This document shows, in pieces, positions 39,501-63,184 of a stretch of 64,000 nucleotides of DNA. Both the position numbers and the translations under genes were made by a program. Every line of letters begins with the position of its first letter. The first letter of the stretch is position 1. The stretch spans positions 3,857 through 67,856 of the forward strand of contig CACWVU010000003.1 of the NCBI GenBank assembly GCA_902764415.1, written 5' to 3'. The DNA comes from an uncultured bacterium (GTDB taxonomy: Bacteria; Verrucomicrobiota; Kiritimatiellia; RFP12; UBA1067). A model generated the notes under the pieces. That model was not told where the DNA came from, did no database searches, and saw nothing but the letters and a program-made list of their open reading frames with translations.

Positions 39501-42500
39501 CAGGTCTCCTTCCCGCGCTCGGCCGAGCCCTGGAGCCGCTGGCGCCAGGCGCTGCACCGCACGGTCCCCGCGACCGCCATCGACGAGCGCTACAACTGGA
39601 TCTCCGAGGATCCAGCCCTCCTGCTCACCTACTACTTCACCATGCGCTATCGCCTGAAGGAGGGCTTCGACCTGCTGCCGCTCGGCGGCGCCTACGCCAA
39701 GCGCATATCCGCCGCCGAGGGCGGCATGTGGGACGACGGAACCGCCGCCGACGCCTGGGCCGAGACCGGCGCCGACGCCGACTTCGACCGCCTGCCCGAC
39801 TGGTGGGCCGACTACGCGCGCAACAACTACTGCGACCCGCTCGACCCGCCGGAGCGCATCGGCTGGGACACCGCCGTCAACTACGACGGCATCGTCATGG
39901 CCGCCTGGGCCGCCTACCTGCGCGACCTCGCCCGCGGCATGCTCTCCGACGGCAAGTACCACCCCGAGTTCGCCGACAACCGCGACCTCGACCACGACGG
40001 CATCCCCGACTGGTGGGAGGACATGTACAAGATCAACACCGGCTCGAAGGACGACGCCGTCGCCGACCCCGACCACGACGGCCTCTCCAACTACCAGGAG
40101 TACCTCATCTCCGAGGTCGACCGCATCGTCGCGCTCGATCCGACCCTCGCCCACTCCATCACCGAGGACGTGGTCGACTACTACGTCCAGACCACCAACT
40201 CGCTCGGCGAGACCGTCTACCTCGGCGAGCTCTACGCCGACCACGACTTCATGGAGGACCTCGAGGAGGACGCGAACGGCCTCGACCGCACCCGCTACGA
40301 CGCCAACACCGACGCCGACGAGGACGGCTGGTCGGCCTGGAGCGAGCTGCGCTACTCCGACTACAAGCTGACGACCGCCCAGAAGTTCGTCTCGCACCTC
40401 GCCGGCGTCGAGGAGGTCGAGGACTACCCGGTCCCGGTCGTCCACGCCACCCTGCGCTACAACGGCTCCAAGGTGCCAGTCGGCTCCACCGCGCCGGTCA
40501 TCGTCTACGCCTACTCCGGCAACAACCTCCAGAACGAGCCCAACGCCGTCTACACCGTCACCCCGGGCGCCAGCGAGACCCGCTACCTCTACCTCGGCTT
40601 CTTCGAGGACCGCGTCTTCCACGGCACCCTCACCCCGGGCTGGGTGGTCAACAACCTCGGCTCGTTCTCGCTCCAGGTGGCGCATGCCCAGCCCGACGAC
40701 ATCTTCAGCTGGGAGATCTTCGACGACGAAGGCAACAGCCTCGGCCTCTACTCCGGCACCTACGATGAGATGCGGGCGGCGGTCACCACCTACGGCAGCC
40801 GTTGCAAGGTGAAGACGAAGGAGTTTGTCTGGTCCGACACCCTCGCCTCCGGCAACGGCGGCACCAGCGACGACGAGTTCGCCCTCAAGATCGCCTCCGT
40901 CGACAGCACGATGAAGGGCCATATCCTGCTCTTCAACAAGCGCGTGGGCGACATCGATCTCATCACCGGCGACTTCGACCTCGACGTCAGCGTGCTCAAG
41001 TCGTATTTCATGACCTATGGCATCGCGCTGCCGCAGCACTTCCTGCGTCTCATGTACCAGTCCCAGCTGCCGACGCTGCAGACCAAGGACCTCCAGGTCT
41101 CGCTCGCCCGGCCCGACCGCGGCAAGCTCACCGAGGGCGTCACCGCCTTCGTCGCGTTCATCGATGCTGACGGCGACGGCGCCTTCACCCCCGGCACCGA
41201 CCCGATCGGCTTCATGAAGGACGTCGAGGTCGGCTGGGACCAGGTGCCCTCGCTCGTCATCGAGATGACCGACTCCTCGCAGGCCGCCGGCGAGCGCTTC
41301 GCCTACGGCGGCGGCTCCAACACCGTCGACACCCTGCGCATCATCCGCACCTCGGTTAACGGCTCCGAGGAGGGCGTCAAGCGCCGCATCGTCTACAGCC
41401 GCGAGACCGGCGACGTCAAGCGCAACACCGTCTACGAGGGCGACCTCGTCACCTCCGGCAAGTTCGGCCTCGACTGGTCCAGCCTGCGCGCCGACCTCAA
41501 GGCGATGGAGACGGTCGCGTTCGACGACGTCACCGAAGTCGGCTACACCGTCACCCTCGGCGGCGGCTCGGTGCAGAACATCAACCCGGCGAATGTGGCC
41601 CGCACGTTCACGGTGGAGTACACCACCAAGCCGGTCAAGCCCACCCTCTACTCGCCGAGCGCCCTCGCCGACCCGAAGGTCGAGACCGCGCGGCCCGAGT
41701 TCAAGTGGTCCGGCGCCGACGGCTACACCTCCTTCATCCTCCAGATCTGGAACGCCGAGACGAACGTCTACGCCTCGCCGCTCACCGCGCTGCCGCCGAC
41801 CGACTCCTTCGGCCGCTACTTCTGGACGCCGCCGGTCTACATCGGCAACGACATAAGCGACGACGCCTGGGCGCTCAACAACAACACCAACTACCGCTGG
41901 CGCGTGGCGATGTTCAACGCCAAGTTCTCCGACACCAACGCCGCGGACGTGGCGTGGAGCGACTTCGCCGCCTTCGAGACCCGGCTCGCCCCGGCGAACG
42001 ACTTCTCGACCCGCCTCGGCCGCGCCGACGTCAAGGTGCGCTACTACGGCCCGGCCACCAACGAGCTCGGCACGGTGATCGTGCAGCTCTTCCGCAACGC
42101 CGACTTCGCCGGTGTCCCCGCCGCGCAGACCCGCCTCTACGCCGCCGACCTCGCCGCCGAGGCGAACTCGCTCACCAACGCCGCGGCCGTCTCCTTCCTC
42201 GGCCTCGACGCCGACGAGTACTTCGCGGTCGCCTTCATCGACCGCAACGGCAACGCCAAGCGCGAGCCCTACGAGACCTGGGGCTACTCCGCCCAGGTCG
42301 GCCATTCGCTGCCGGCCATCTGGCGTCCGCTCGGCGCCAAGGTCGACCCGACCAGCTCCGAGGTTTCGACGGTCGAGGTGTTCATGGAGGACACCGACGT
42401 CAACCGCGACGACATCCTCGACTGGAACCAGGACGAGTCGCTGCTCGCCACCGCCGCGTCCGGCACCGCCTCCGGCGCCGACACGAGCGACGTCGACCTT

Positions 42501-45500
42501 GACGGCCTCACCGGCGACGAGGAGACCGGCGACACCTACACCAACAGGCAGCGGTGGGACACCGACGGCGACGGCATGCCCGACGGCTGGGAGGCCCGCT
42601 TCGCCGACACCGACCCGCTCATGGCCGACGCCGAGCTCGCCGCGGACGGCGACCTGATGGCATTCGCCGTCACCAACGGCATCTACCGCCTCGTCACCGA
42701 CGCCGCCGGCGCGCGCTACCTCGTGCGCGACACCAACTCCGCCTACCGCGTGGGCGACGTGATCTCGACCACCAACCTCGTCACCACCTACGACTACATG
42801 ACGGTAGTCGCCGACGAGACCGGCACCAACTTCGTCACCGTCACCTACGCCGGCCTCGGCACCAATGTCCTCGCGACCGGCACCTTCAAGATCGACACCA
42901 TCTCGCCGGTGTCGGTGGCGCTCGTCCACGCCCAGGTCTACGACGAGTTCGGCTACTGGCAGTCCACCGCGGTCGACCCCGCCGACCCGCTCACCAAGCC
43001 GTTCACCGCGCTCGACAAGTACATGCTCGCGCGCTACTTCGAGGCGATCGGCTTCACCGGCGTCCGTGAGGAGGCGATGAACGTCTCGAAGACGTGGAAG
43101 GACTTCACCCTCAAGCCGCTCGACGCCGACTGCGACCGCGACGGCGTGGCCGACGGCTGGGAGCTCTACCTCATGTTCGGCACCAACGGCGTCGCCACCG
43201 CCCAGACCCTCGCGACGCCGGCCGCCGCCGAGATCAGCCCGTGGAAGTACGCCGACCGCGACGCTGACATCGATGGCGACGAACTCTCGCTCGTCGACGA
43301 ATACGCCCAGGGCCGCACCCCGTCCGATCCGTGGAACAAGTACTCGGTCTACGAGGAGCTGCTCGCCGCCGGCGTCGTGCCGGAGGACGCCGACAAGTTC
43401 ACCGACGCCAAGGCCCGCCGCTTCGCGATCGCCGCGGCCGACTACGACGAGGACTGGGACCTCGACCAGATATCCAATGTCCAGGAGATGTGGGCGTACT
43501 ACCGCGACATGGCGCGCCTCGCCGACATCGACCCGGAGAACCCGCGGTCCGACGGCTTCACGCCCGACTACTTCCGCATGATCGGCACCAACAGCTACCT
43601 TGGCGCCTACTACAACGGCGCCGAGTTCGTCGAGCGCGCCGCCCGCAGCATGCTCGACATCACCGACCTCAGGATGGCCGGCACCCGCGACCTCTACCAC
43701 TCCGGCTGGGACCTCTGGTCGATCGTCCGCTACTCCTACGCCAAGCAGGAGGAGAGCGGCGAGGAGTTCTCCGAGGAGCTGAGCGTCGCCAACAAGTACA
43801 CCTATGTGATGTTCGAGGGCTACGAAGGCGTCACCGAGGACGCGCTCGTCAAGTTCCACCACGACGATCTTGGCCATGCCACCTGCGGCTCGCTTGCCGG
43901 AGTGATAACCACCCACGGCGGCCTCGAGCAGATGAAGGAGGAAATCCGCCAGCGCTCGGTGAGCGCCCTTGACGCCTCCGGCTTCGATACACCCGAGCCG
44001 ATGGTGAAGTTCACCTTCCGGTATACCGGCTTCGGCATGCGCGACGTGATCGTCGACGTCTGGCAGACCTCGTCGATCTACCCCGAGCGCGGCGAGCAGG
44101 TTGCATCCTCCTTCGCGCTCCAGCCCGCCTTCGACGCCGGCGTCGCCTACGCACGGGCGAAGTTCCCCGCGCGCGGCACCCTCAAGCAGGGCCCGGCGAA
44201 GTTCGTCGCCTACATCGACGCGGACGAGTCCGGCACGCTCTCGCCCGGCGAGACCTTCGGCGTCGCCGAGGCCAACGTGGGCTACTCCGACCTCGACCTT
44301 ACCATCCGGCTCGGCGACGGCAATCCGGCCCTGCCGACCATCAACCTCGTCGCCAACGGCACCAACGACACCGAGCGTCCGATCCAGACGGTGGCGATCG
44401 TCCGCACCAAGGTGAACGGCCAGTACGTCTCGCCGCGCGGCGTGATGCTCAAGCGCTACGACAACAACGTCAACCGCACCGCCATCTACCCGAGCGACTG
44501 GATCAACGAGACCGACGGCTTCATCGGCGTCGACAAGTACCTCGCCTTCGACGCGCAGGCCGACATCGACCCGAGCGACGAAACGCTGCCGGCGGTCGAG
44601 GAGGTCACCTACGAGATCGTGAAGCTCCGCCGCTCGTTCCTGATCGACAGCGACGACGGCACCAAGATCAGCAACACCAACCTCAACCACTACGTCTACA
44701 CCGAGGTGGTCGAGGACGAGGAGACCGGCGACAGCTCCAACGTCTACCACACCGTCGACCAGCAGGTGAACGAGGAGTTCACCCTCCGCTACTCGGTCGC
44801 GCGCGACGTCCCGCTCGAGGTGACCGGTTCCGCCGCCTCGAAGGCGAGCGACACCGTCGTCTCGTTCCTGGTCCCGGCCGACCGCGCGGTCACCAAGTTC
44901 TGGCTCGACATCGACGGCTCCGTCAAGGGCGGCGACTCCGACCGCGGCTTCCTGCTCGCGAACCTGGTGACGGGCGACGTCCTCAACACCGCCCCCGGCC
45001 TGACTGGCCAGTACACGAGCCGCCGCGTCATCCTCGACGGCGACTGGTTCCGCGAGAACGGCATCGCGTTCACCGAGGGCGAGCACGGCGTGCGCGTAGC
45101 GCTCGGCAACGACAAGTTCCCGGCCGCCCCGACCGAAGCGGCGGAATGGTCCGAGCGGGCAGAGTTCAGCGTCGCCGCGGACGCCGTCTTCAAGGGCATG
45201 GTTGCGGTGCGGGCGGTTCACCCGGTCGTCACCAACGAGAACGCCTTCACCACCATCACCGTCGCCGCCTACGAGCAGCCGGACCTCGCCAACCCGGTGG
45301 CGACCGCGACCAGCGTCACCAACGGCGCGGCGGTGGTGCTCGGCGGCCTCAGGACCGGCCGCAAGTACTACCTCGCCGCCTGGTACGTGAAGGACGCCGC
45401 CGACGGACGCAGCGGCTCCTCCGCCGCCGATCCGAAGGTGCGCATGCCCTACGACACCTGGGGCTACCTGACGATGCTCGGCGAGGCCACCAATGGCTTC

Positions 45501-57500: not shown

Positions 57501-60500
57501 GCCTACGAGACCGCCGACCTCGTGAACCCGGTCGTGGTCTCCAACAACGTCGCGTCCGACGCCGCGGTCGTCCTCGAAGGCCTCCGTCCCGGCGCGAAGT
57601 ACTATGTCGCCGCATGGTACGCGAAGGAGCCCGATGACGGCCGTCTCAACGCCGACACGCGCATGCCGTGGGACAGCTGGGGCTACTACTGCAACCTCAC
57701 TCATACCAATGCGCTCCAGATTGCCGGCACCTACGGCTTCGACCCGGTGGCGATTGCCGCGGGCGACACGCTGGTATCGACGAACGCCGTCTGGCTGCAG
57801 GACACCGACTTCAACGACAACGGCGTGGCCGACCGCGAGGAGGACTTCTTGGACGTGCCGGCTTTCTACGACCGCGAGCTTGAGGTCGCCTATTACTTCG
57901 ACATCGCCGGCGCCGAGGAGCGCCACACCAGCGGCGGCGGCGGCTCGACGGCCACGCACTGGGCGATGGCCTATGCTGTGGTGCCGTACGCGACGGTGGC
58001 GACGACCAACGAGCGCGGCGCGGTGGTCTGGTACGCGGTCGTTGTCGACCCCGCCGACCCCTCGTCCTCCAACGTCACCAGCGTCGGCATCGCGGTGGGC
58101 ACGCCGCTCTCCGAGCTCAAGCTCGCCTCCACCTACTACTACGGCAAGGAGCTGGCGCTCGGCACCAACGTCTCCTTCGCCGCCGACTCGGAGTGGAAGG
58201 TGACCGAGTCGCGGGTGCAGGACGTCGTGCTCGTCCATGCCCAGGTGCTCGACCGCTTCGGCTTCGACCCGGCGACAGCCAACAGCGCCATCGCGACCGG
58301 CGAGCGCGTGAACTCGAAGGAATTCACCAAGCGCGACAAGTCCAGGTACCTCGCCGACTACCTCGAGAACGCGCTCGGCGTCACCAACGCCGCCGCCTAC
58401 GTGCTCAACACCACCGTCGACGACTCCGACCCGGTCTACGGCGGCATGGGCGACGGCATCGCCGACGGCTGGGAGCTCTACATGATGTTCAAGCCCGACG
58501 GCGTGAGGGACGGCATCGTCGGCACGGTCGCCGACCTCACCAACGAGCTGGTCAGGCTCTCGCCGTGGAACTACGACGACCGCGACGGCGACCTCGACGG
58601 CGATGGGCTCTCCAACCTCCTCGAGTACGACGGCGGCCACTTCCCGACCAACCCCTACGACGTCGACACCGACGGCGACGGAATCACCGACCTCTACGCC
58701 TGGAAGTACATGCTCAAGGGTGGCGAAGCCGACGGCGACACCGACGGCGACCGGCTCTCCAACTACGCCGAGTACCTCATCAGCGAGGTCTTCCAGTTCT
58801 GCGACCTCGATCCGCGCAACCCGAAGACCGACGGCGCGTGCGTCGACTACTTCCGCAAGGTTGGCAACCTCTACCTCGGCGAGCTCTTCACCGACCACGA
58901 CCAGGTCTCCGACCGCTGGGAGGCGCAGTATGCGACCGAGAAGTCCAATACCGGCGACATCTGGGCGAACCGCTACGTCTACGATCCCGAGAAGGACCTC
59001 GACGGCGACGGCTGGTCGAACTACGCCGAGTCGCGCGCCGGCACGAGTCCGGAGGTGGCCGACTCCATCGGCATCGACCAGATGACGCTGGCCGAGCACC
59101 CGGTCCCGATCATCGAGGCGACGGTAGTCTACAACGGCTACGACCCGATCTACGGCCCGATCGTCTTCCGCGCCTGGAACCAGAAGTACGACCCGGAGAT
59201 GATGCACGCGCCCGATGCGATCTGGACGGTGCCCTCGAGCGTCTCCCGCGGCAGCGACGGCAACGGCACCACGACGGACGCCGGCGCGCAGGTCCTGGAG
59301 GCCGCCAAGTATGTCGGCGTCAAGCCGGCCGGCCGCGTCGTCTACAGCCTCGGCCCGGGCTCGGTGACGCCCGGCTCGGTGAAGATCTACTTCCGCGATC
59401 CGGCCTTCCGCCGCGCGGTGGTGCGCGACAGGACCGAAGTCTACGTCTCCGACGCCGGCGTCTCGCAGGCGAAGTGGTATGCGCTCGTCCAGGACAAGAA
59501 CGGCGAGCTCGTCACCTCCATCACCAACCAGACCGCCGTCGCGGTTGGCTCGATCGACTACACCACCGGCAAGGTCGAGATCGACTTCGGCTCCGCCGCG
59601 CTCAGCGGCAGCGTCTACGCCCAGATGATCAACGCGACGAGCGGCAACGAGAAGATCGACTCCGACATCACCCACTCGCTCCAGTACTTCAACTGCGAGA
59701 AGCTCAACCTCGACGCAAGCTACGTGAAGCTCGAGTGGAACCGCACCCGCGTCGGCACCAACGTCGGCGGCGTCTACTACCTCGGCGACGCCGACCCGGC
59801 GACCGGCGAATCCTCCGGCGGCAGCTCCGGCGGCAACCCGTTCAGCTCCGGCGGCAACTCCACCAGCTTCACCTCCATGAGCAAGGGCTACGTGCGCGAG
59901 GGCCTGAACAGCTTCGTCGTCTACGCCGACCAGGACGGCGACGGCGACTACACGCCCGGCGAGCCCTTCGGCTTCGTGCGCGACGTCGACGTCGGCTGGC
60001 AGGGCGCCAAGTTCTCGGTCGAGCTCTCCGAGACCTCGCCGATCTTCGCCCGCGTCAACGTCCGGACCGAGGAGAACGACCGCGTCAACCTCTACGGCGT
60101 CTACAGCGACACGATGTTCATCACCAACATCATGGACCTCGCCACCGCCCAGAGCGTCGACGAAGCCTCCATGACCGACGGCGGCCGCTACATCCACGTC
60201 CGGATCGACCGCTACGCCGTCAACGGCGTGCAGCTCGGTGTCGGCGCCGGCCAGCTCAACATCGACGACCGCGTGCTGGTCGACAAGTACATCGACGGCA
60301 ACGTCCGCAGCGTCTTCCACGAGGGCGACTTCCTAAAGGAGGGCGAGTTCGACATCGACTGGTCCACCTTCGAGGAAATCTCCGAAAGCCCGGAAATCGC
60401 GGAGAAGCTCGGCAACAACCCCGACATCACCTCCGTCGCCTACCGCATCGTGGTCGACAACGCGCTGGTGGTGAGCCCGGCCACGAACAACCTCTCGCTC

Positions 60501-61925
60501 GCCTGCGTGTTCACCCGCCGCTTCGACGCCGACGACGGCGTGTCCCGCCAGATCCCGACCGACCTTGAGGACGTCGTCTGCCACGGCGCACGGCCGACCT
60601 TCAGCTGGTCGATGGGCTCCAAGAACACCTACACCGCCTTCCAGCTGCAGATCCTCGACGGCGGGTCGGTGGTCTACGACAGCGGTGTCCAGCTCGCTCC
60701 GTGCAGGAGCCCGGATGGCAAGTACACCTGGACCGCCCCGATCTCCGTCGGCGACCAGATGCCCAGCGGCCAGATCCTCTCCACGACCGGCAACTACACC
60801 TGGCGCGTCGCGATGTACAACGCCAAGTTCAAGCCCCATCCCTTCGTCGACGCCTTCTCGCAGAAAGCCTCGTTCCGCACCGACGTCGACGCCCAGCAGG
60901 ACACGGACGACGACGGCTTCAACGCCATCAACGTCTGCGTGAAGTACACCGGCCCCGTGGACGTGCTCGCTTTCTGCGACGACGCCTCCGTCAAGGGCAA
61001 GGTGCGCCTCCAGGCGTTCACCACCGCCGACTTCAGCGGCAAGGCGCGCTTCCAGGAGGCCGGATCCACCGACACCAAGATCGTCAGCGTGCCGGCCTCG
61101 CAGACCATCGTCACCGGCAAGGACGAGATCGCCGACGCCTCGCACACCATGGCGAACGCGCGGCTGATCGGCCTCCCCGCCGGCACCTACTACATCCGCG
61201 CCTACATCGACACCAACGGCAACTTCGAAAAGGACGACTGGGAGTCCTGGGGTCAGGCCACGGTGCCAGTCACCGTCGGTGCTGGGCTTGTTGCGCCGGT
61301 CGTCGGTCTCTACATCGAGGACGCCGACACCAACCAGGACTGGGTGCCAGATGCGCTTGAGTTCGACAACGACGGTCAGCTGAAGGACGAGTACAAGGGC
61401 AAGACGACCATCTCCGGCGAGTTCCTGATGTCGAAGAACCTCGCGGCGGCAATGTCCGGCAACACCCTGGAGGCCGGCATCTCCACCGGCATCTCCGGCG
61501 CCACCATCACGGCGTTCCAGTATGTCAACGCGATGGGTACGCTGCTCGGCGCCAACTCGAGCGGCAAGACGACGACGATCGACGCCATCCGCGAGGCGGT
61601 GGAGAAGAAGGTCAAGGACGGCACGGTGAAGATCACGTCGATCGCCTTCGACCCGGTCGACAAGAAGGTGGTGCTGGCGGTCGACGCCGAGGTGGCGGAC
61701 TCGGTGGCGGGCGAGCTCTTCTCGAAGATCTACGAGTTCCCGTCCGACGACGAGGCGAAGGTGACGGTCAAGGTCTACCGCAAGGATTCGCTGGTGCAGG
61801 CCGACTGGGTGCTCGTCCACACCGAGGCTAACGTCGCGGTCGGCAAGCACAGCCAGTACGTGGAGGTGGACCTCCCCGACGGCGACTACACCAGCGGCTT
61901 CTACCGCGTCGAGATCGAGCAGTAG
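30570..61925 (+). CDS. giant secreted multi-repeat protein, 10,451 aa (LamG + dozens of TSP3-like Ca-binding repeats + ~1,000-aa super-repeats)
   Basis: 31,356 nt with no stop. Signal ..MIKRFAAFAFAAFVAFGAQA. An alternative start is ATG 30612, preceded by gaggagg at 30598-30604. TSP3-like motifs occur throughout 34.6-61.4 kb: DTDGDGIPDGWE, DTDGDGLPDGYE, DPDHDGLSNYQEYL, DSDGDGLPDGFE. Coding periodicity is strong: G/C-ending codons were 20/20, 15/20, 14/20 and 19/20 in four spot samples. Confidence 0.9.
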   Translation: MKLSMTMKKTRRTGMIKRFAAFAFAAFVAFGAQAVEGEGDIRSVEAVYNLSAGYSYPNDVSPHKVGETFYILVRLLNEDYRNLNTNHQWQIVQSANGVAIGNAQASVFWPGLRIAIGSQIRTADFSSTGPNGEMSGPNLEFPYYTDFYFKYTVQEGELGLPVRLVNSKEQIINSATISGSYSLKFVNVNTLNNSNGYYWNLVNDKGTMASFWFGPDVPDPEPFDYPTEPSPGTGNGHIFPVYIYPGLYVQTIDFEPTYADATDPANKIWRDVYQGISDSPGKDPAIVGTAQDEGGATTVYIWSEDESIFSVAGIPGETVSYRVKGELVSRTVYPVQLTANGLSSFKLMGGASAEVGAWTNIVLCATKIPAINANEEIVDGCLVTRRVRVVAAPAPFITFSDADGNRSVSLEATSAYTVGSQMKMTFSKAFDDYDVKVKLMMSVGSTSIDLVAEKYILVSDSDGADPASTASLAEITMPRGQTETYFYIYPLGTCKELKTIGIVVSNSIDQATQPEAYEQFKDGTHRNMTVKVTDQKPVVTASIPSSGFKNDTVNVDVTVGDNWRDLSEQNTNGYRVVIILGGTKVYETNVVHFAENEQISFPVVIPAEGNPLKGTVQVWDQMGNASDTSLEGSILTIEALAPLTVMAGTFQSRDKSVAPDTDATYAEGQQVYVGAVLSSPAATKMYAFIVPMDAASSNLVYTSATTNGLEINTSGDNAQYSVRAPIKLLDGDVEGRRVNLGVVLKDKQDWFDPGAKVVDTYSLGGTWTLTVTNVPPTYASDGVWGGEETNRIEVANGARYPGRVSATTPVQFSVKVADPGVIDATSGTTRVRWTWTDGPADDRFTQSQITTVDANGIATATFIFEEEGQVQNVSLQLQDRDMRADNPNVFGDDKYFFSVAVGDVPTVIIDFAKSDGPNYVETANKNHNFFTVKMSEWPTASVPGRERLGLTNPLYVKVTLPTDYQDDSRAVLHLVDTNGVVQVDDDEGIVITFKTAKQATRDGIKVYFDLDSQNGGSGPVMDPSAFLVKAEVITDTAASDYQTWAEYYASIEEQVTLMNDNPSKFTLDMAGTQDWAGYAGATNEWTAGETIKLTWSYTDIAPDVTNQDATISWTLADVNNKRSVKVIAATNSITYSTKSPKVATATGTYEFKVPNAKYTKVTVTARDGDGGEAAYEFWIHVIPTKNVIINPYGPSPTTSTKYGTASGLGRGHIYVEGSTKQYTMRQFQQTWLYSESDPQAFLYAAGYPATNTVAYDDGTLGIAAGFELAAEPNAQGGKWATAQGESTRYSYGPSEYDNYFYCWLMKNQDSGGWEIQVVNPLTSPATAQPFNPMLPATDANNNGAYPSIEVEAVFAREYYPSDNLGDINADGIPDAYVKLYPGFGVFDDGGALTGNDLSRLDNFNVDEDYLPAAESVEYAKFIPGNAADWVMRGVPFNARREIRGWDYHLNNGPAISGVLNSAPERRYTNPKEDADSTLSALEYMGFLTWCAKNGHDAADEASWLLWSPENPTDPTLADTDGDKIPDGYEYYIWYRAHVGYIDYDGQYRRLIGRRYNTENPAEPTVIPSEEIESIYNPNVPNDLLAYVDTDGDGLNDLIEFELGTNPVDFDSDGDGLPDGFEVFISKTDPLIADLMTSNPDGDAKAELVVENLSVIGILNSDGKVERYTILNPDLGESFDVSDETVDGDWTYILNLSDGGRVTNAYVTATANVVTNGYFGSMTGAGTYLVSYLPSESTWKCVDVGDGAYYLGEPVEVNPGLRINFIKAGVTAKRTTLAAAPKMAYSVWKYDYSGRLVLGQELHEKWTPIFLPAGSTVVERPAAKNVTLLHHHVYQYRGLAKDKLDRSRKVWVPVKAFDPRTAWRVAGGANTSAFSTYDEFMYPHFLLQDSYRYSAGAALYTGGWSVSLSELTPNNDHGTRVSIWERYCPDPLNADTDGDGCPDGWEAYLFDGPPVYLPDNDENFPGERVYSVVLTPSIYNIGCKVAAGSPVSSSVAEDGSSSWADEYAGYDSTGAYPDCPTIVNGNRFPDWTNKAWPTDPWQDDTDGDGIPDMAERDFFRYGNATAPGAGGGLNPLSWDTDQDGLPDPWEAEFAGTYTPGDEKTTATTVAVDENGNTNTTVSVTRAGGTWSGGMDGTVNDATLDYDHDGLQNWQEYLVGAMRCWRYDDTISEWDNNVFNEMALQAAIDNLSGVADVADANVWNAFWTDRLVSDAQQGANPDGQYPVGKGYSPDHAGYNPRITVDGFFDCSASYFSLCENEWDPVAGSWYMFRDGINHDLSNPGEEWTFLEGSTLVQCNRFTWRPYYEALSGSSPKSLGDDSMSGGYDFGTFPSYVIAPDRYICCDPTLADTDGDGMDDYYELYHGMNPLLGIAGASERSNGGYDLVFAAYGGGQGTPGSEEPPPASADVNYWKKRPTDGTQSPNPCWRINQTRRIGTGLSDYDYEAYPWLNGLAYADPDGDDLRNQTESIMSDMQAQSTWLHSDPTPLWMTDLDYEGSITHRYYIPTEVRGLIILGAPDGFFDPETLKEYKFNDFMGYTWVDGEPPTLSIAGVDLNLGNVFDVAYDFEENEGYDTDHDYISDHDEAAGKTKSASDPQDSDSPLRRQAMYFPGEDSLLETTLEDPEYSAVGAIIGNDLPFLYYTVECWAKPEGDLTRDQTVVERAVYTGKSNLGDEQFLRKNFLIGIKNGRWYTMYDSAGTSVNDPQQILDGPFATTNWTHVAATFDGEYLSLYINGVKYKQIKTSLRPENGVAAVGTDVGGRLEGRSDWGNYAAILVGASATTFEGVVMDSLYRQLSMVGTKFSDYDRYFRGYVDEVRVWDGARAESEIRADYKKRYTRADALANREAVWEVWSQGIVNRSPSTENLLPAELRRHWTFDHMPGGVSTDVVMRSPAGFTTAEGVVDAKAIWSRPKEWESPWWTSVEVRSTVYKEHYEAWIPWISDTVGHLPRFDKTTTDSKYWSEDMIGGEFASTFGYSQVSFPRSAEPWSRWRQALHRTVPATAIDERYNWISEDPALLLTYYFTMRYRLKEGFDLLPLGGAYAKRISAAEGGMWDDGTAADAWAETGADADFDRLPDWWADYARNNYCDPLDPPERIGWDTAVNYDGIVMAAWAAYLRDLARGMLSDGKYHPEFADNRDLDHDGIPDWWEDMYKINTGSKDDAVADPDHDGLSNYQEYLISEVDRIVALDPTLAHSITEDVVDYYVQTTNSLGETVYLGELYADHDFMEDLEEDANGLDRTRYDANTDADEDGWSAWSELRYSDYKLTTAQKFVSHLAGVEEVEDYPVPVVHATLRYNGSKVPVGSTAPVIVYAYSGNNLQNEPNAVYTVTPGASETRYLYLGFFEDRVFHGTLTPGWVVNNLGSFSLQVAHAQPDDIFSWEIFDDEGNSLGLYSGTYDEMRAAVTTYGSRCKVKTKEFVWSDTLASGNGGTSDDEFALKIASVDSTMKGHILLFNKRVGDIDLITGDFDLDVSVLKSYFMTYGIALPQHFLRLMYQSQLPTLQTKDLQVSLARPDRGKLTEGVTAFVAFIDADGDGAFTPGTDPIGFMKDVEVGWDQVPSLVIEMTDSSQAAGERFAYGGGSNTVDTLRIIRTSVNGSEEGVKRRIVYSRETGDVKRNTVYEGDLVTSGKFGLDWSSLRADLKAMETVAFDDVTEVGYTVTLGGGSVQNINPANVARTFTVEYTTKPVKPTLYSPSALADPKVETARPEFKWSGADGYTSFILQIWNAETNVYASPLTALPPTDSFGRYFWTPPVYIGNDISDDAWALNNNTNYRWRVAMFNAKFSDTNAADVAWSDFAAFETRLAPANDFSTRLGRADVKVRYYGPATNELGTVIVQLFRNADFAGVPAAQTRLYAADLAAEANSLTNAAAVSFLGLDADEYFAVAFIDRNGNAKREPYETWGYSAQVGHSLPAIWRPLGAKVDPTSSEVSTVEVFMEDTDVNRDDILDWNQDESLLATAASGTASGADTSDVDLDGLTGDEETGDTYTNRQRWDTDGDGMPDGWEARFADTDPLMADAELAADGDLMAFAVTNGIYRLVTDAAGARYLVRDTNSAYRVGDVISTTNLVTTYDYMTVVADETGTNFVTVTYAGLGTNVLATGTFKIDTISPVSVALVHAQVYDEFGYWQSTAVDPADPLTKPFTALDKYMLARYFEAIGFTGVREEAMNVSKTWKDFTLKPLDADCDRDGVADGWELYLMFGTNGVATAQTLATPAAAEISPWKYADRDADIDGDELSLVDEYAQGRTPSDPWNKYSVYEELLAAGVVPEDADKFTDAKARRFAIAAADYDEDWDLDQISNVQEMWAYYRDMARLADIDPENPRSDGFTPDYFRMIGTNSYLGAYYNGAEFVERAARSMLDITDLRMAGTRDLYHSGWDLWSIVRYSYAKQEESGEEFSEELSVANKYTYVMFEGYEGVTEDALVKFHHDDLGHATCGSLAGVITTHGGLEQMKEEIRQRSVSALDASGFDTPEPMVKFTFRYTGFGMRDVIVDVWQTSSIYPERGEQVASSFALQPAFDAGVAYARAKFPARGTLKQGPAKFVAYIDADESGTLSPGETFGVAEANVGYSDLDLTIRLGDGNPALPTINLVANGTNDTERPIQTVAIVRTKVNGQYVSPRGVMLKRYDNNVNRTAIYPSDWINETDGFIGVDKYLAFDAQADIDPSDETLPAVEEVTYEIVKLRRSFLIDSDDGTKISNTNLNHYVYTEVVEDEETGDSSNVYHTVDQQVNEEFTLRYSVARDVPLEVTGSAASKASDTVVSFLVPADRAVTKFWLDIDGSVKGGDSDRGFLLANLVTGDVLNTAPGLTGQYTSRRVILDGDWFRENGIAFTEGEHGVRVALGNDKFPAAPTEAAEWSERAEFSVAADAVFKGMVAVRAVHPVVTNENAFTTITVAAYEQPDLANPVATATSVTNGAAVVLGGLRTGRKYYLAAWYVKDAADGRSGSSAADPKVRMPYDTWGYLTMLGEATNGFNAAAIVATEKSVPTNTIWMQDTDWNDNGVADREENLTIKSIPGFTPSEAPEWEDVDCDGIPDQDDEDPVFDNSTKSIEGDVMAKATLKMLTVRIGTVELETNWVTYVVYDPDQETATRLDGDTIVIPRGTPASALTSLYTTYLYGRKKSAPLGIGVATNLAEGVVYEHEWKDVALVHHQVYERFGFNPNTANALASPSNWVNTAKFTALDKYIVTNYLYAIGAVVDPASFTNWTLNARRVDFDYDGLTDGWELYTMFGTNAVQALDKTAKASVINAWVAGDRELDPDGDGLTNLHEYNGGFEPTDPWNKYTFDFGTPLPGGALPLTDYEARRFDIGSAEKQLADDDNDGLSNWAELLATRNGAFGEFDVKKDFTVTNQFDYFRTNGLEGVARRYAGFVVTDHDFVGDAWEDAHDLTVANRYVYDAHTDYDDNGWSLWSEATAAAMWKPEVITNTYDMGDEVYTWVYTNGVEFTGTPLPKVNLVAIGDVGDKNYSYQQVENEGTTNAVTNTVWATYPVTLKAYRGNDLGSAYRTFYVDGTVKDGVLVASFDGEGLVEGLNTFVLENGDASGFCKAMVGFDRVDLEISIDSGESVIPPRTVYGWGDAVSIRRTEINGRTCPMRYVWSGSVDGYVTAADVLKSGAIDLDARYLVEDAAAMGIANTNIASVTYEVSGWYGQTFTKTFAAKRPVAIPVSPTIGKAYTVRTRKPVFAFAGLDGATAFALQISISTNAADVFLATTNLLPAANSAGSRIFKSDWQIGEGLDLNDSSNYFWRVVGLSAKWPEVEESGASAWAEFKTSVDSTKANTGYGKIAAEVRYYGAATNDTASVIVGVWRDAAFAGTPVAMKHLAAGDFAALAVQKEESEFFKPTASVEFDGIEPGNYYVMAYNDLNGNGKRDAWESWGYKNKVGTDEPDLYAPVALTVVSTKAATPTALVFMEDTDINDNGIPDCVEDIDFCGEDPSSVSGSMDLDGDGLDESDEIWNEHLYGTDPLVWDTDGDGLPDGYEVWAGLDPVSEYDIMLTRTYADTNGVEQTYTYRTSAAENAEDGDVMAYAMIVRRALVVADAVGGETVTLVVDPADTTDYRVGGKLKAGGVTSFATAVPYATLPSADWNEYTEKEYYVLSTNVYEATDNDFVVDVVDEFEIMLMHWQVYGAFGFESGVATPGDTEKRADGQVHTRPMYGIDKYLVSALLGIEEDMNQNRRWGQGLTCLKPGVSDYDGDGIPDGWELYMMFPGAKAGRYEPAMNPWKPFDGYTPGAGGMTWTGLDYYDKDGNLHTAGDADWTPADWYNGGANAASPYTANDGNTFYVDIDDKTARQWNIESVTNQLADVDNDGLSNMDEYLAARDTLVPGAADLDVRNNFSNGTTLDYFRTNGVSGAGRRYLGEIATDHDFIEDWYEDFYNTDSASRNRYDAYNDREEDGWSNWSEARAGTNPELFGTLSLVRYDLTEDNVVAEYPIPTIGVTLTYQTMDTFDSSIVLKAWHGDTAAGTPDAVWTVSGAANGSTISKRFLGLNPNRRVDFNIGPGDIAEHHVKIRWYDPDYYIETINYETNGTIKSIVYTIHDIDSSRWSTPPYFGDDVLDQSNGKYTAAIPGGWVNYKTGDISIDFSDPAYRDTDYTYHERVDDNQKIIHHWNLTRSFFNVEYMSRIVSSGNRKTFSLSKPMEADANSKGRLVEGRTIFIAFADVNGNGVLDPGEPFGYQKGVEVGWDKVADLRIELTDEAPALPRVALGGISSNAWLSIRRQVVNDSVRRGIEKVVWTGRAPSSGSLTEADILLEAGGYVFDGSLTNDAVKAGLGQVYSSCYGLYADGDLIAAFTNVFDLARDVPVPVSPSDKNGYLVRTARPTFVFNGDRSKYTAFAIQIADAAGDVVWTSTTNVFPAATASGSEYVAPVYIGQGQLLADGTNYLWRVAQFNSKFPTAEDDADWSDWTPFKTAVDSTDGDTGYGKLSAEIRYYGAATSALTNVIVGVYDTADFTGEPIAKATLLGDGTVQDLARIPDAGKGFMNIETNVVFDGVSAGPRYVMAYIDVNGNGRRDRYEPWGYYNNVGTDTKALYTPMSLAVSAAKADAPSCIVFIEDTDVNDNGIPDSAEDTSSWTDPLPASADLTDADGDGLTAFDEINLYGTNPYCADTDGDGMDDGWEVANGLNPRVDDSDVVGADDVMAYAEVEAQIAVSNDTVYVVMTVVDGYGKVVATNLYDTFTLGDGRIAVGKKSDAVVVPGQFYATISTNVVLIHSAVYDWFGFDPTTANPRATAAEDEGGEDGNGLGRNTVPFTAYWKFVTEKHYLKELFGVDWSLKTAAIDSNANGLPDGWELYVAFATKTVDPNTNTGFPLAGDILVDAIANFNEGVDESDPWNRYYFYEQLGSTNGVVRYTNAEARKYDLANGDLTNDEDFDGLSNYSEFLASKLTPAIELDVTNPVTDGVTPDYFRKAGDDYMGLLFNGGEFIEPELRRVMGIATQTGAGTQDYKDTGWDAWATARYSIYNMDQTVDISGVVSDELMLLIRYWNVIRPGEFTGTTVKEALDFFHEVWEGVIRLIDSEGNILIDGKDASVSGPGTIHQADAAQTTTQVVAFFGGQAKMEEVIARNKKDIAADQIVKPEPEVKLLLKYAGNGSHNVVIEAYQLNPAYPEYGEQMTAQWTTPVTFSAGIAQTVLATTPASGALLQGPARFVAYIDQDGSNSLSAGDIFGETSCEVGYLGCNLEIALGEANPALPALRLADGTNAVNTIALVRTAINGKPLYNNAKGVFIVQFPNNAARESLYPDEYDSGDYIGIDQGLSTLVNIKDEHGVVTNGIESVTYEVLRLTPYEIAGLSITNLNHYILVETNGESSVTSNFVNQSVNEEITIKYSLIRDVAKSIACAGSTADDLTFTFTVPTDTANTKFWLKTVSGVETNILGGTKGFILNDIRDGVVVLDKQWFKKNNVAIPTGRVKFGVVLGNDRFGRPGDSSDDWNCALAEVFVNEGASFDGKLAVVVKHPTATLGSKLTIAAYESSDLANAVAVTNNVAASTAVELTGLRPGASYYIAAWYVNDENDGRGSDKSGNKYRMPYDTWGYYCKLDVTNALGVASSMAFDPVAVIAATNASEITIYLQDTDWNANNIVDREENFRAINGDYDRSVDPKYGFDIAGIDEVELFSDAGENDVFAYAEVPFYCVMANVGGAEMWFAVTNLDEETVSDKIVPGIPVGALLKDLITLKATYFYDFGKTKPTRLALGTNIVWTGEEKVVKAVESKSLILVHGQVYDYFKFNPNTANGRIAKSGWVNTRSFTSADKSYVTNYLANVLGETDVSGKALPIDYPDADEVVNGRGDGILDGWELYVKHSPWDFTDRTFDADEDGLDQLHEYDGGFEPTDPWDAYSVYNNFFENGLLLPGTPKFTDAEARRFGIAEADVDKDDDNDLLTNLQEIQAYYYDRTGLDDIDPEKAWSDGATPDYFRAVGSTYLGLLFNGGEFIEPEARKALGIGVFSQVGTRDHAMTGWDNWSTVRYSIAKKEGTLSVSGVSEELMLVIRYLNVIRPGEFQGGTLEEVLEFFHSNWEGVTRAIDSEGNVVVEAKDKEVHGGAYIVDADAVSTTEGLIRFFGGVDRMQADIAANKKVLTDADIATPEVEVVLTLKYAGNDSQNIAVEAYQVNPAYPEYGMQQTAKWNVSEKFSAGVAQIVLPSTPAAGALVQGPARFVAYIDQDGDNKLSAGDIYGTTDVEVGYLGAKLTIRMGGEQDYAYPLVRVQATNDCSIVALVRSKINDVPLYSQVAGVYYCYLQNNAAREAIYPIEFFTEEHTGLDKDLALDYGGELEQIESVTYEILHLDLAGLNDVNVTNLNHYLWIEEVETDDGVSNVVHFVEQSLNEEVTFRYSNTRDKADVWGVADAVKGNVTVSFTVPNDGYANTRFWLKVNGAVYDGEHGNGFLIPPVADHVVVLDQEWFDNEGKDVVFDVGENKVQVLLGNDKYAYTEDVAEWSEEARFSVDAAPIRTGKLAVEVKHPLTNFTSGVTIAAYETADLVNPVVVSNNVASDAAVVLEGLRPGAKYYVAAWYAKEPDDGRLNADTRMPWDSWGYYCNLTHTNALQIAGTYGFDPVAIAAGDTLVSTNAVWLQDTDFNDNGVADREEDFLDVPAFYDRELEVAYYFDIAGAEERHTSGGGGSTATHWAMAYAVVPYATVATTNERGAVVWYAVVVDPADPSSSNVTSVGIAVGTPLSELKLASTYYYGKELALGTNVSFAADSEWKVTESRVQDVVLVHAQVLDRFGFDPATANSAIATGERVNSKEFTKRDKSRYLADYLENALGVTNAAAYVLNTTVDDSDPVYGGMGDGIADGWELYMMFKPDGVRDGIVGTVADLTNELVRLSPWNYDDRDGDLDGDGLSNLLEYDGGHFPTNPYDVDTDGDGITDLYAWKYMLKGGEADGDTDGDRLSNYAEYLISEVFQFCDLDPRNPKTDGACVDYFRKVGNLYLGELFTDHDQVSDRWEAQYATEKSNTGDIWANRYVYDPEKDLDGDGWSNYAESRAGTSPEVADSIGIDQMTLAEHPVPIIEATVVYNGYDPIYGPIVFRAWNQKYDPEMMHAPDAIWTVPSSVSRGSDGNGTTTDAGAQVLEAAKYVGVKPAGRVVYSLGPGSVTPGSVKIYFRDPAFRRAVVRDRTEVYVSDAGVSQAKWYALVQDKNGELVTSITNQTAVAVGSIDYTTGKVEIDFGSAALSGSVYAQMINATSGNEKIDSDITHSLQYFNCEKLNLDASYVKLEWNRTRVGTNVGGVYYLGDADPATGESSGGSSGGNPFSSGGNSTSFTSMSKGYVREGLNSFVVYADQDGDGDYTPGEPFGFVRDVDVGWQGAKFSVELSETSPIFARVNVRTEENDRVNLYGVYSDTMFITNIMDLATAQSVDEASMTDGGRYIHVRIDRYAVNGVQLGVGAGQLNIDDRVLVDKYIDGNVRSVFHEGDFLKEGEFDIDWSTFEEISESPEIAEKLGNNPDITSVAYRIVVDNALVVSPATNNLSLACVFTRRFDADDGVSRQIPTDLEDVVCHGARPTFSWSMGSKNTYTAFQLQILDGGSVVYDSGVQLAPCRSPDGKYTWTAPISVGDQMPSGQILSTTGNYTWRVAMYNAKFKPHPFVDAFSQKASFRTDVDAQQDTDDDGFNAINVCVKYTGPVDVLAFCDDASVKGKVRLQAFTTADFSGKARFQEAGSTDTKIVSVPASQTIVTGKDEIADASHTMANARLIGLPAGTYYIRAYIDTNGNFEKDDWESWGQATVPVTVGAGLVAPVVGLYIEDADTNQDWVPDALEFDNDGQLKDEYKGKTTISGEFLMSKNLAAAMSGNTLEAGISTGISGATITAFQYVNAMGTLLGANSSGKTTTIDAIREAVEKKVKDGTVKITSIAFDPVDKKVVLAVDAEVADSVAGELFSKIYEFPSDDEAKVTVKVYRKDSLVQADWVLVHTEANVAVGKHSQYVEVDLPDGDYTSGFYRVEIEQ
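38380..39080 (+). other. single LamG/concanavalin-A-like domain inside the giant protein
   Basis: RRQAMYFPGEDS...YTVECWAKPEGDLTRDQTVVERA...NWTHVAATFDGEYLSLYINGVKY...FRGYVDEVRVWDGARAESEIRADYKKRY is the typical Laminin_G_3 pattern. Confidence 0.75.
39700..61330 (+). repeat. seven divergent ~3-kb (~1,000-aa) coding super-repeats of two architectures (order A-B-A-A-B-B-A)
   Basis: The in-frame anchor motif L(V/M/I)H.QV(Y/L)..FG(F/Y) sits at nt 42921, 46023, 48942, 52212, 55233 and 58230, giving spacings of 1034, 973, 1090, 1007 and 999 aa. Type A units carry DHDF..NRY.Y...D(G/E)DGWS.WSE, F.AF.D..G.G...PG.P.G....VEVGW, RP.F.(W/F).G...Y.WRVA.FN.KF, RYYG.AT and Y.(V/I).AY.D.NGN(G).(K/R)(R/D)..E.WGY. 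Type B units carry PDYFR..G..Y.G..(Y/F)NG.EF(V/I)E, FVAYID.D....LS.G..(F/Y)G....VGY, NLNHY, KFWL, AAYE..DLAN(P/A)V, YY.AAWY and RMP(Y/W)D(T/S)WGY. Confidence 0.8.
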
Positions 61926-61926
61926 T

Positions 61927-61975
61927 GTTCGTGGTTCGTGGCTCGTGGTTCGTGATTCGCGGGCTGTGGATTGTG
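61927..61975. repeat. seven exactly phased heptamers (consensus GyTCGTG) directly after the giant-gene stop codon
   Basis: gttcgtg gttcgtg gctcgtg gttcgtg attcgcg ggctgtg gattgtg. It starts 2 nt after TAG 61923-61925 and ends 21 nt before ackA ATG 61996. No inverted partner lies nearby. Confidence 0.8.
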
Positions 61976-61995
61976 AAAAAGGGAAAAAGGAGAAA

Positions 61996-63135
61996 ATGAA
62001 GCAGAAGGAAATCAGAAAGGTGCTGGTGGTGAACTCCGGTTCGAGTTCGCTCAAGTACCAGCTCTTCGACATGAAGTCCGAGACGCGCCTCGCCAAGGGG
62101 CTCGTCGAGCGCATCGGCTGCGGCGGCCCCAAGGACCACGCCGCGGCCTTGGCGCAGGTCGTCGCCGATCTCGGCGACGCCGCGAAGGGGATCGACGCCA
62201 TCGGCCACCGCATCCTCCACGGTGGTGAGGTGTTCACCGACTCCGCGCTGATGACCAAGGCGAACATGGCGAAGGCGAAGAAGCTCGTGAAGTTCGGCCC
62301 CCTGCACATGCCCGCCAACCTCGGCGGCATCGAGGCGTGCGAGAAGATCTTCAAGGGTGTCCCCAACGTCGGCGTCTTCGACACCGCCTTCCACATCGCG
62401 ACGATGCCCGACTGCGCCGGCATGTACGCGATCGACCCGAAGTACTACAAGAAGATGGGGATCCGCAAGTACGGCTTCCACGGAACCTCGCACAAGTTCA
62501 TCACCCAGGCGGCGGCGAAGTTCCTGAAGAAACCGGTCTCCAAGGTCAACCTCGTCACCTGCCACCTCGGCAACGGATCCTCGCTCGCGGCGATCAAGAA
62601 CGGCGGCGTCGTGGACACCTCGATGGGCCTCACCCCGCTCGCCGGCATGGTGATGGGCACCCGTTGCGGCGATATCGACGCGGCGGCTGTGCTCGCGATC
62701 ATGGAGGCTGAGAAGCGCACCCCCGCCGAGATGGACACCATCCTCAACAAGAAGTCGGGCCTCCTCGCGCTCGCCGGCTCCAGCGACTGCCGCGACATCT
62801 GCGCCAAGGCGGAGAAGGGCGACAAGGCGGCCGAGCTCGCGCTCGAGATGCTCGCCTACCGCGTGGCGCTCTACATCGGCGCCTACAACACCGTCATCGG
62901 CGGTGCCGACGCGATCGTGATGACCGGCGGCATCGGCGAGAACTCCAAGGAGGTGCGCGAGCGGATCATCCGCCGTCTCGGCGCGCTCGGGATCAAGCTC
63001 GACCCCAAGGCCAACCAGGTCCGCGGCGAGGTCAAGGTCATCTCCGCCAAGGGCTCCAAGATCCCGGTGGTGGTCATCCCCACCAACGAGGAGCTCATGA
63101 TCGCCAGGGATACGGTGAAGGTTCTAGGCGCCTAG
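61996..63135 (+). CDS. ackA: acetate kinase
   Basis: MKQKEIRKVLVVNSGSSSLKYQLFD, HRILHGG, FDTAFH, YGFHGTSH, ITCHLGNG-type (VTCHLGNGSS), TSMGLTPLAG..MGTRCGDID and MTGGIGENS. SD aggag lies 4 nt upstream of ATG 61996. Confidence 0.95.
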   Translation: MKQKEIRKVLVVNSGSSSLKYQLFDMKSETRLAKGLVERIGCGGPKDHAAALAQVVADLGDAAKGIDAIGHRILHGGEVFTDSALMTKANMAKAKKLVKFGPLHMPANLGGIEACEKIFKGVPNVGVFDTAFHIATMPDCAGMYAIDPKYYKKMGIRKYGFHGTSHKFITQAAAKFLKKPVSKVNLVTCHLGNGSSLAAIKNGGVVDTSMGLTPLAGMVMGTRCGDIDAAAVLAIMEAEKRTPAEMDTILNKKSGLLALAGSSDCRDICAKAEKGDKAAELALEMLAYRVALYIGAYNTVIGGADAIVMTGGIGENSKEVRERIIRRLGALGIKLDPKANQVRGEVKVISAKGSKIPVVVIPTNEELMIARDTVKVLGA

Positions 63136-63172
63136 AAACCTAGAATCCTAGAAATCTAGAAGTCTATAAAAA
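63123..63172. repeat. phased CTAG octamer array spanning the ackA stop codon
   Basis: ttctaggcg cctagaaa cctagaat cctagaaat ctagaagt ctataaaa. TAG triplets sit at 63125, 63133 (the ackA stop), 63141, 63149 and 63157, exactly 8 nt apart, so all three frames are hit. CTAG is palindromic, so the same holds on the minus strand. Confidence 0.85.
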
Positions 63173-63184
63173 CAGAGATCAGCC

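Follow-up and report, generated by a model that had tools for sequence, protein, structure and literature searches.

A giant acidic protein built from seven ~1,000-residue cassettes in an uncultured Kiritimatiellia bacterium: a putative surface fibril or adhesin

The giant gene and its seven units

The window analysed here (64,000 nucleotides of an uncultured bacterium of the Kiritimatiellia, contig CACWVU010000003.1 of GenBank assembly GCA_902764415.1, positions 3,857 to 67,856) has a G+C content of 59-68% and contains a run of plus-strand genes dominated by one giant gene (30570..61925, + strand), a single open frame encoding 10,451 amino acids (aa). In other assemblies the start is placed 14 codons downstream, at nt 30612, giving a protein of 10,437 aa, and this call recurred after an unchanged 458-aa neighbour gene in three independent rumen assemblies of the European Nucleotide Archive (ENA); the neighbour gene itself was found unchanged on 21 contigs. 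Another neighbour gene clusters with a protein that NCBI labels 'Kiritimatiellae bacterium'. On ENA ERZ919315 scaffold_290 the gene at the position of the giant was called at 6,238 aa, not 10,437 aa, which could reflect a shorter allele, a frameshift or a scaffold gap. The downstream start would expose a typical Sec-type leader, and a signal peptide, MIKRFAAFAFAAFVAFGAQA (30612..30671, + strand), was predicted by reading it directly from the sequence. As this leader contains no cysteine, it is not a lipoprotein signal. The whole protein is very acidic (pI 4.3) and carries 44 DxDxDG loops, against 1.8 expected. Its coding strand shows a negative GC skew and a positive AT skew, and opposite it lie long stop-free open reading frames (ORFs) on the minus strand (37491-50198, 4,235 aa; 53151-60320, 2,389 aa; 31116-36317, 1,733 aa), which are probably shadows of the biased, GC-rich codon usage of the giant and not genes.

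The array of repeats is flanked by a conserved N-terminal region and a short C-terminal tail. The N-region (aa 1-3051; 30570..39722, + strand) is collinear with the N-regions of other family members at any unit count, and was aligned with 12 of them at 25-42% identity over 2,355-3,041 of its 3,051 residues (77-99%). Pfam recognised in it only TSP3_bac and Laminin_G_3, the latter a concanavalin-A-like lectin (LamG) domain at aa 2641-2758 (38490..38843, + strand; E 4.8e-16). Family-wide hidden Markov models (HMMs) further detected a degenerate half-unit at aa 1703-2086 (35676..36827, + strand; 2.1e-6 and 2.2e-9), in which a domain resembling the first module of the repeat (S1, aa 1703-1899, with LLHHHVYQYRGL) is followed by TSP3 loops resembling the second (S2, aa 1921-2086, with DTDGDGCPDGWEAY); the DNA repeat family D9 also matches this segment, which looks like an old, decayed half-cassette. 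The tail (aa 10265-10451, 187 aa; 61362..61922, + strand) was identified with an HMM of 126 family members (E 1.4e-49). At about 190 aa it is conserved in 126 family sequences, ends in ...SGF[FY][KR]VE... and always follows the last A unit. No match to it was obtained in Pfam, NCBIfam or PDB sequences, and it is a candidate anchoring or sorting domain.

In a preliminary description of the window, seven super-repeats of about 1,000 aa had been proposed to fill two thirds of the giant protein, between nt 39700 and 61330. The family-wide HMMs delimited seven collinear units of 876-1,136 aa at aa 3052-10264 (nt 39723-61361), or 69% of the protein. An anchor motif, searched for here as L[VMI]H..V[YL]..F[GK][FY], was recovered at all six positions originally listed (nt 42921, 46023, 48942, 52212, 55233 and 58230, corresponding to aa 4118, 5152, 6125, 7215, 8222 and 9221), and the proposed spacing of 973-1090 aa agreed with the measured intervals of 1034, 973, 1090, 1007 and 999 aa. 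The copy at nt 52212 reads LIHSAVYDWFGF, without Q. Six anchors were observed against a mean of 0.0 in 2,000 shuffles, and six DGWELY and seven EDTD elements against means of 0.0 and 0.01, respectively. The claim that DGWELY opens every unit was accurate for six of the seven, the exception being the first unit (U1), which carries DWWEDMY / DRLPDWWADY and lacks the S1 anchor domain. Similarly, the EDTD element said to close each unit was found seven times, but the M/FAYA sequence said to follow it was present at six junctions, not seven. When the protein was compared with itself in a chunked self-BLAST dot plot, unbroken diagonals covered entire units, displaced by one to several units, and merged into stretches of up to 1,537 aa (274 bits), and the recurrences were therefore not isolated short matches lacking collinearity. 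A MAFFT alignment of the seven units was likewise collinear from end to end.

Each unit was cut into five modules (S1-S5), with one HMM per module. The module HMMs reproduced the suggested subtype order A-B-A-A-B-B-A, the A type comprising U1, U3, U4 and U7 and the B type U2, U5 and U6, and gave the module map N(3051 aa)-[S2 S3A S4 S5A]-[S1 S2 S3B S4 S5B]-[S1 S2 - S4 S5A]-[S1 S2 S3A S4 S5A]-[S1 S2 S3B S4 S5B]x2-[S1 S2 S3A S4 S5A]-tail. The two subtypes had also been thought to follow two distinct motif orders, which proved incorrect: 11 landmarks (VMAYA, anchor, DGWELY, DYFR, GWSxWS, FVAYID, RTxVNG, SVTYE, WRVA or LGNDKF, WGY and EDTDxN) occur in an identical order in every unit. What distinguishes A from B is the replacement of the S3 module, for which the S3A and S3B HMMs gave no cross-hits. 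S4 and S5 of the two types are diverged but homologous (cross E-values of 1e-21 to 1e-36 between S5A and S5B), S4 separating by type in percent identity only, and S1 and S2 are type-neutral (S2 of U2 and U6 51% identical, S1 of U6 and U7 41%).

S1 is a beta/alpha domain of about 150 aa that begins with xGDVMAYA and holds the LVHxQVYxxFGF anchor; across 14 diverse copies, residues D3, M5, A6 and the anchor His95 were invariant. S2, of about 200 aa, consists of TSP3/EF-hand-like DxDxDG loops (DGWELY ... DYFR ... GWSxWS). The S3 module is a variable insert, predicted to form two beta-sandwiches in A units and a helical domain of about 100 aa plus strands in B units, and is nearly deleted in U3, where an 88-aa remnant is left. 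S4 comprises a DUF2141-like beta-sandwich (FVAYIDxDG) and a small domain, with the motif series FVAYID..RTxVNG..SVTYE, and S5 an FN3-like domain followed by a second DUF2141-like sandwich ending in WGY...EDTDxN; a distant relationship connects the opening domain of S4 with the closing domain of S5. Successive units are joined by linkers of 34-94 aa with 22-28% Asp+Glu, often with TSP3 loops.

All seven units lie on the plus strand. U1 (aa 3052-3954; 39723..42431) is a first-A unit of composition S2-S3A-S4-S5A, without S1, and groups with first units elsewhere. U2 (aa 4026-5011; 42645..45602; anchor nt 42921) is of type B (S1-S2-S3B-S4-S5B) and belongs to a B1 subclade with family members P0007, P0011 and P0015. 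U3 (aa 5055-5930; 45732..48359; anchor nt 46023) is a short A unit, its 88-aa remnant standing between S1-S2 and S4-S5A, and is followed by U4 (aa 6025-7073; 48642..51788; anchor nt 48942), an internal A unit with all of S1-S2-S3A-S4-S5A. U5 (aa 7141-8091; 51990..54842; anchor nt 52212) and U6 (aa 8126-9091; 54945..57842; anchor nt 55233) are both of type B, U5 being the nearest sibling of U6 (48%), and U7 (aa 9129-10264; 57954..61361; anchor nt 58230) is a last-A unit of composition S1-S2-S3A-S4-S5A.

The protein family, and the age and remodelling of the array

An exhaustive profile search of 1.84 billion representatives returned 891 clusters with E<=1e-3, of which 412 had E<=1e-30, counted at 50% identity; a family of five proteins, as suggested by a word-indexed search with U5, was a severe underestimate that the exhaustive search corrected. 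The plan common to the family consists of an N-region of ~3,000 aa, a variable number (n) of cassettes, which are the part that is amplified, and a tail of ~190 aa. Module mapping was applied to the best 150 of the 891 representatives; of the complete proteins, 59 had one cassette (median 4,082 aa), 20 had two (5,348 aa), 13 had three (6,305 aa) and 4 had four (7,659 aa), with the window protein (10,451 aa) as the single complete representative with seven. The rarity originally claimed for units of ~1,000 aa thus applies to their number, n=7 being extreme, but not to the unit as such, since a large family carries the same cassette one to four times among its complete representatives. S1 is missing from the first unit, and the last, of A type, precedes the tail; B units are a minority and, in every protein complete at both ends, lie between the first and last units. 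The giant displays each of the family features, namely the collinear N-region, S(1)-S2-S3-S4-S5 cassettes and the conserved tail. Related loci, sought in GTDB genomes with the three B units, were found in gut and rumen metagenome-assembled genomes labelled Kiritimatiellia, Verrucomicrobia or Lentisphaeraceae. No account of the family, or of comparable super-repeats in bacteria, came to light in the literature library that was searched.

The cassette also exists as a free-standing gene. P0005 (942 aa; positions 2662-5490 of its own contig, Logan SRR28623934) is a complete stand-alone cassette, 58-60% identical to U7, in which NVMACAQ (the VMAYA motif) comes almost directly after a signal peptide and the C-terminal end lies 34 aa past EDADTN. 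P0063, P0098, P0140 and P0141 also start with a signal peptide, and in P0005, P0063 and P0140 a VMAYA-type motif lies within a few residues of it. The existence of such stand-alone secreted cassettes indicates that the natural cassette runs from S1 to S5. On its contig, P0005 is preceded by two genes without a Pfam or PHROG match and followed by a tyrosine integrase gene (phrog_1, 4e-26), and it may be located on a mobile element. A viral source of the cassette, suggested by the adjacent integrase, was not retained: no relatives were found in IMG/VR, the single cassette P0005 had no PHROG match, and matches in BFVD were generic FN3 arrays only.

Over S2-S5, sibling units of the giant share 24-48% identity, and the longest repeated stretch of DNA in the gene measures 300 nt (68% identity). 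This makes the copies old, and collapse of the assembly is not an issue. Every unit was closer to a positional counterpart elsewhere (44-80% identity) than to its siblings. The closest relatives of U1 were first units of other proteins (P0015 unit 1, 52%), those of U2, U3 and U4 were P0007 unit 2 (51%), P0006 unit 2 (64%) and P0006 unit 3 (44%), respectively, that of U6 was in P0001 (80%), and those of U7 were the last or only units of family members (42-60%). A neighbour-joining tree, which the preliminary description had called for, was built on 108 units and resolved B, internal-A, first-A and last-A clades, with U2 in one B subclade and U5 and U6 in another. Since the nearest siblings are adjoining units (U3-U4, 41-42%; U5-U6, 48%), we infer an ancestral A-B-A-B-A array to which two units were added by local tandem duplication.

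Evidence of more recent change was seen in GTDB genome RUG14537 (CADCCW010000004.1), which was compared with window positions 44175-64000; collinearity begins inside U2, takes in the acetate kinase gene downstream of the giant and reaches the end of the window. It holds one additional, chimeric B unit, in which U2 S5B and U3 S1/S2 (91.6% DNA identity) are followed by a piece resembling S2 of U6 (84.6%), and its array therefore comprises eight or more units. Compared with the window, its DNA is a mosaic: U4 and the first part of U5 are 98-100% identical and the downstream flank 92-98%, whereas identity falls to 68-72% over U6 and S1 of U7 and to 72-83% over most of what remains of U7. Furthermore, S3B of its U6 was 82% identical to S3B of U5, compared with 59% to S3B of U6 in the window, a pattern indicative of gene conversion between B units. 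Cassette copy number varies even between near-identical genomes. These observations support unit-wise duplication and shuffling as a continuing process layered over ancient paralogy. The earlier proposal of such a process was thus borne out for duplication and, through RUG14537, for unit-level recombination, but not as a recent shuffle, the copies (24-48% identical) being ancient.

Predicted folds, domain searches and gene neighbourhood

One unit of each type was modelled with AlphaFold2, as had been recommended, and both were mostly strings of beta-sandwiches. The A-type model (U4) had a predicted local distance difference test score (pLDDT) of 75.6 and a predicted template-modelling score (pTM) of 0.68, and the B-type model (U5) a pLDDT of 66.9 and a pTM of 0.54. 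S1 was modelled as a five-strand sheet followed by helices, S4 and S5 together as about four beta-sandwiches, and S2 mostly as loops and short helices of low confidence, as is expected of metal-dependent loops. Foldseek searches (both unit models against the PDB and the A model against BFVD) returned generic tandem Ig/FN3/MG arrays at TM scores of about 0.1, among them the MG domains of complement C3/C5, the BIg domains of SiiE, fibronectin, MpIBP region II and phage FN3 proteins. A family assignment based on likeness to MG domains, those of complement C3/C5 and of alpha-2-macroglobulin, was rejected because that likeness is unspecific.

Domain libraries were applied to the whole giant (Pfam), to the N-region, U4, U5 and tail (NCBIfam) and to the stand-alone cassette P0005 (PHROGs). 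Pfam recovered only TSP3_bac, Laminin_G_3 and sub-threshold DUF2141. TSP3_bac (PF18884, cut-off 25) scored 55.8 bits in the N-region and 27.6 and 33.7 bits in aa 5133-6107 and 6108-7197, the best stretches of the array lying in the U3-U4 and U4-U5 linkers. DUF2141 (PF09912) scored 16-22 bits in the units of the window, under its gathering threshold of 24.4 bits, and matched 9 of the 21 A-type sequences scanned (best 2e-8), and the Pfam family Ig_Rha78A_N was matched by six A-type relatives. The whole-unit A and B profiles reached at best about E 0.014 among PDB sequences, a weak EF-hand/lanmodulin match in S2. With NCBIfam, no matches were obtained for whole U4 and U5 or the tail. RTX/HemolysinCabind was matched neither in the giant by Pfam nor in the four NCBIfam segments, and Pfam found no Big_* domains in the giant. 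Cohesin, dockerin, carbohydrate-binding module (CBM) and discoidin (F5_F8_type_C) domains had no Pfam match in the giant or its relatives, and neither cohesin nor dockerin was found by Pfam in the neighbouring glycoside hydrolase (GH) proteins. No protease or self-cleaving domain was detected in the library and profile scans. S1, S3B and the tail may each represent a new fold or family.

Upstream of the giant lies a cluster of GH genes, comprising a GH36 gene (101-1411), a 1,860-aa ORF (1836-7418, + strand) in which Pfam recognised GH130, a GH78 alpha-L-rhamnosidase and a glutaminase-A-like six-hairpin domain in one frame, a GH92 gene (8323-10740) and a gene for a melibiase/GH31-like protein of 1,198 aa (23651-27247). 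A 3,530-aa protein encoded at 11913-22505 (+ strand), with Gly_rich_2, Laminin_G_3, fn3 and DUF2341 hits, has no recognisable similarity to the giant. The ORF immediately before the giant gene (30089-30559, + strand; 156 aa) encodes an N-terminal hydrophobic segment with the rest charged and helical-looking; it was called at the same position in other assemblies, and any link to the giant would be one of position only.

Proposed role, alternative readings and significance

The favoured reading, to which we assign a probability of about 0.62, is that the giant is a secreted, acidic Ca2+-loop protein made of seven old, still remodelled cassette copies and acts as a surface fibril or adhesin. It would be an extracellular or cell-surface fibril of adhesin or glycan-binding type, exported by Sec and stiffened by Ca2+ at its loop regions. 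Its length (reach) and valency would depend on cassette number, and its specificity on the LamG domain and on the variable parts of S3-S5, the latter being under diversifying pressure. The array would have grown by old, stepwise tandem duplications that gave rise to first-A, B1, internal-A, B2 and last-A lineages, with U3/U4 and U5/U6 as neighbouring sister pairs, and remodelling would continue through unequal crossing-over and gene conversion between units.

Several points weigh against this reading. The signal peptide MIKRFAAFAFAAFVAFGAQA was judged by eye alone, and no LPXTG, PEP-CTERM, type IX secretion system C-terminal domain (T9SS CTD), RTX or transmembrane segment was recognised in the giant. 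Neither Pfam nor PDB sequences gave a match to S1, S3B or the tail, and no domain of proven function was found. The Foldseek matches, being generic and at TM scores of about 0.1, show fold class and not function, and the pTM of 0.68 for the A-unit model may indicate a compact multi-domain body instead of a rod. Module mapping covered the best 150 of 891 representatives, and the tie of the GH genes to the giant is one of gene neighbourhood alone.

Of known systems, the giant appears to work most like the giant RTX/BIg adhesins, yet it fails their defining features. With SiiE, MpIBP/MpAFP region II and the LapA-type RTX adhesins it shares large size, acidity, a strain-variable repeat number and, on the favoured reading, extracellular strings of beta-sandwiches stiffened by Ca2+, and SiiE and MpIBP were among the best Foldseek matches to the unit models (2yn5, 2yn3 and 4p99). 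However, those adhesins repeat a single BIg domain of ~100 aa, whereas in the giant the repeat is a cassette of ~1,000 aa, with about seven different domains and a period of 973-1,090 aa; they carry a C-terminal RTX/type I secretion system (T1SS) signal and an N-terminal retention module, whereas the giant has a predicted N-terminal Sec-type signal and no RTX hit; and there is no sequence homology between them. The A-band super-repeats of titin follow 7- and 11-domain Ig/FN3 patterns, in which domains at the same position are more alike than neighbours. Conceptually this is the closest parallel, though an analogy only, the likeness being a higher-order periodicity in which a fixed order of beta-sandwich domains is repeated, but titin is a eukaryotic, intracellular sarcomeric ruler composed of Ig/FN3 domains only and unrelated in sequence, and the giant adds Ca-loop regions and the novel S1 and S3B.

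Other comparisons were less close. In Myxococcus CglD/MtsD (NF033765 and NF047639) the TSP3 Ca-binding loops are shared, but the weak local hits at aa 1512-1622 scored 37 and 27 bits against cut-offs of 400 and 800, and the loops alone match. Phage structural and tail-fibre proteins differ from the giant family, which has no IMG/VR relatives and whose stand-alone member P0005 has no PHROG match. Omnitrophota 'dockerin-type' giants and other giants of the Planctomycetes-Verrucomicrobia-Chlamydiae (PVC) superphylum are predicted to be extracellular, contain TSP3 repeats and have been proposed to elongate by duplication (West-Roberts et al., bioRxiv 10.1101/2023.11.21.568195). The dockerin-type proteins are longer than 30,000 aa and combine dockerin/EF-hand domains, discoidin domains and membrane anchors (bioRxiv 10.1101/2023.11.21.568195); the PVC superphylum and TSP3 are common to both, but dockerin, discoidin and membrane anchors were not detected in the giant of the window. 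As the terms Kiritimatiell, Lentisphaer and rumen do not occur in that work, the present family was evidently not treated there. The 7,651-aa adhesin of Mobiluncus mulieris, the largest protein in its proteome, has 51 Ig-like repeats (PMC10619420); it is likewise a giant bacterial surface protein, but has a single-domain repeat and intramolecular cross-links and is cell-wall anchored in a Gram-positive organism.

A bolder reading, considered unlikely, is that the giant is a concatenation of an autonomous secreted cassette and that the locus is a cassette-exchange system, which would reprogramme a surface structure, in both its length and its ligand or antigen specificity, between rumen strains that are otherwise near-identical. 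Exchange would proceed by unequal crossing-over and gene conversion among the 3-kb units and with divergent alleles, and the chain would perhaps also be processed into subunits at the invariant xGDVMAYA boundaries.

It is distinctly unlikely that the cassettes are docking or carbohydrate-binding stations that would, by analogy with scaffoldins, organise the GHs encoded nearby on the cell surface. The gene does stand among the GH36, GH130-GH78-glutaminase-like, GH92 and GH31-like genes, the giant has a lectin-like LamG domain, six A-type relatives match Ig_Rha78A_N, and TSP3 loops resemble the Ca-loops of dockerins (bioRxiv 10.1101/2023.11.21.568195). Cellulosomal scaffoldins, however, are built of cohesin modules with dockerin partners, neither of which Pfam found in the giant or the GH proteins encoded nearby, and CBM hits were also lacking in the giant and its relatives. 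Furthermore, the GH neighbourhood is known at this locus alone, and the flanks include the housekeeping acetate kinase gene.

Little credence was given to a polyprotein, in which the chain would be cut at the unit boundaries (EDTDxN - acidic linker - xGDVMAYA) into ~1,000-aa subunits that act like the stand-alone cassettes, for instance as protomers of a surface layer or fibre. In its favour, stand-alone secreted proteins are exactly one cassette long, with the signal peptide ending near a VMAYA-type motif in P0005, P0063 and P0140; the invariance of D3, M5, A6 and the anchor His95 in the 14 S1 copies would also fit, but invariant residues at the start of a domain are equally expected on structural grounds. 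The linkers are short, hyper-acidic and contain Asp-Pro, but this dipeptide is part of the TSP3 consensus. Moreover, U1 has no S1, and the scans detected no protease or self-cleaving domain.

That the giant is an ordinary array of ~100-aa Ig-like repeats, its ~1,000-aa period an illusion created by a few recurring motifs, is scarcely credible: much of each unit is beta-sandwich, and the first domain of S4 is distantly related to the last of S5, but the idea is contradicted by dot-plot diagonals as long as whole units and offset by one or more of them, and by the HMMs of S1, S2, S3A and S3B, which match only their own positions, the modules within a unit being mutually non-homologous. An assembly artefact or very recent amplification, conceivable because the window comes from metagenome assemblies, where repeats often mis-assemble, can be dismissed, being contradicted by the low identity of the units (24-48%), a longest DNA repeat of 300 nt at 68%, the 10,437-aa call in three independent assemblies and the presence of orthologues of each unit elsewhere.

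The favoured surface fibril or adhesin belongs to a known type, that of giant, repetitive, Ca-binding surface proteins; its composite repeat is unusual and its family is dark. Giant bacterial proteins usually grow by amplification of a single Ig-like domain, whereas this one was built by serial duplication of a 3-kb cassette of seven to eight domains that also exists as a free-standing gene. The analysis defines a large family of 4,000-10,000-aa proteins with essentially no annotation, for which Pfam hits are limited to LamG and TSP3, in gut and rumen Kiritimatiellia, an abundant, mostly uncultured and little characterised group. The positional orthology of the units suggests position-specific roles, and the mosaicism seen between strains suggests that an exposed structure is under strong selection. 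Taken together, these two features make the giant a candidate determinant of attachment in the rumen, whether to glycans (plant or mucin), to other cells or to phages.

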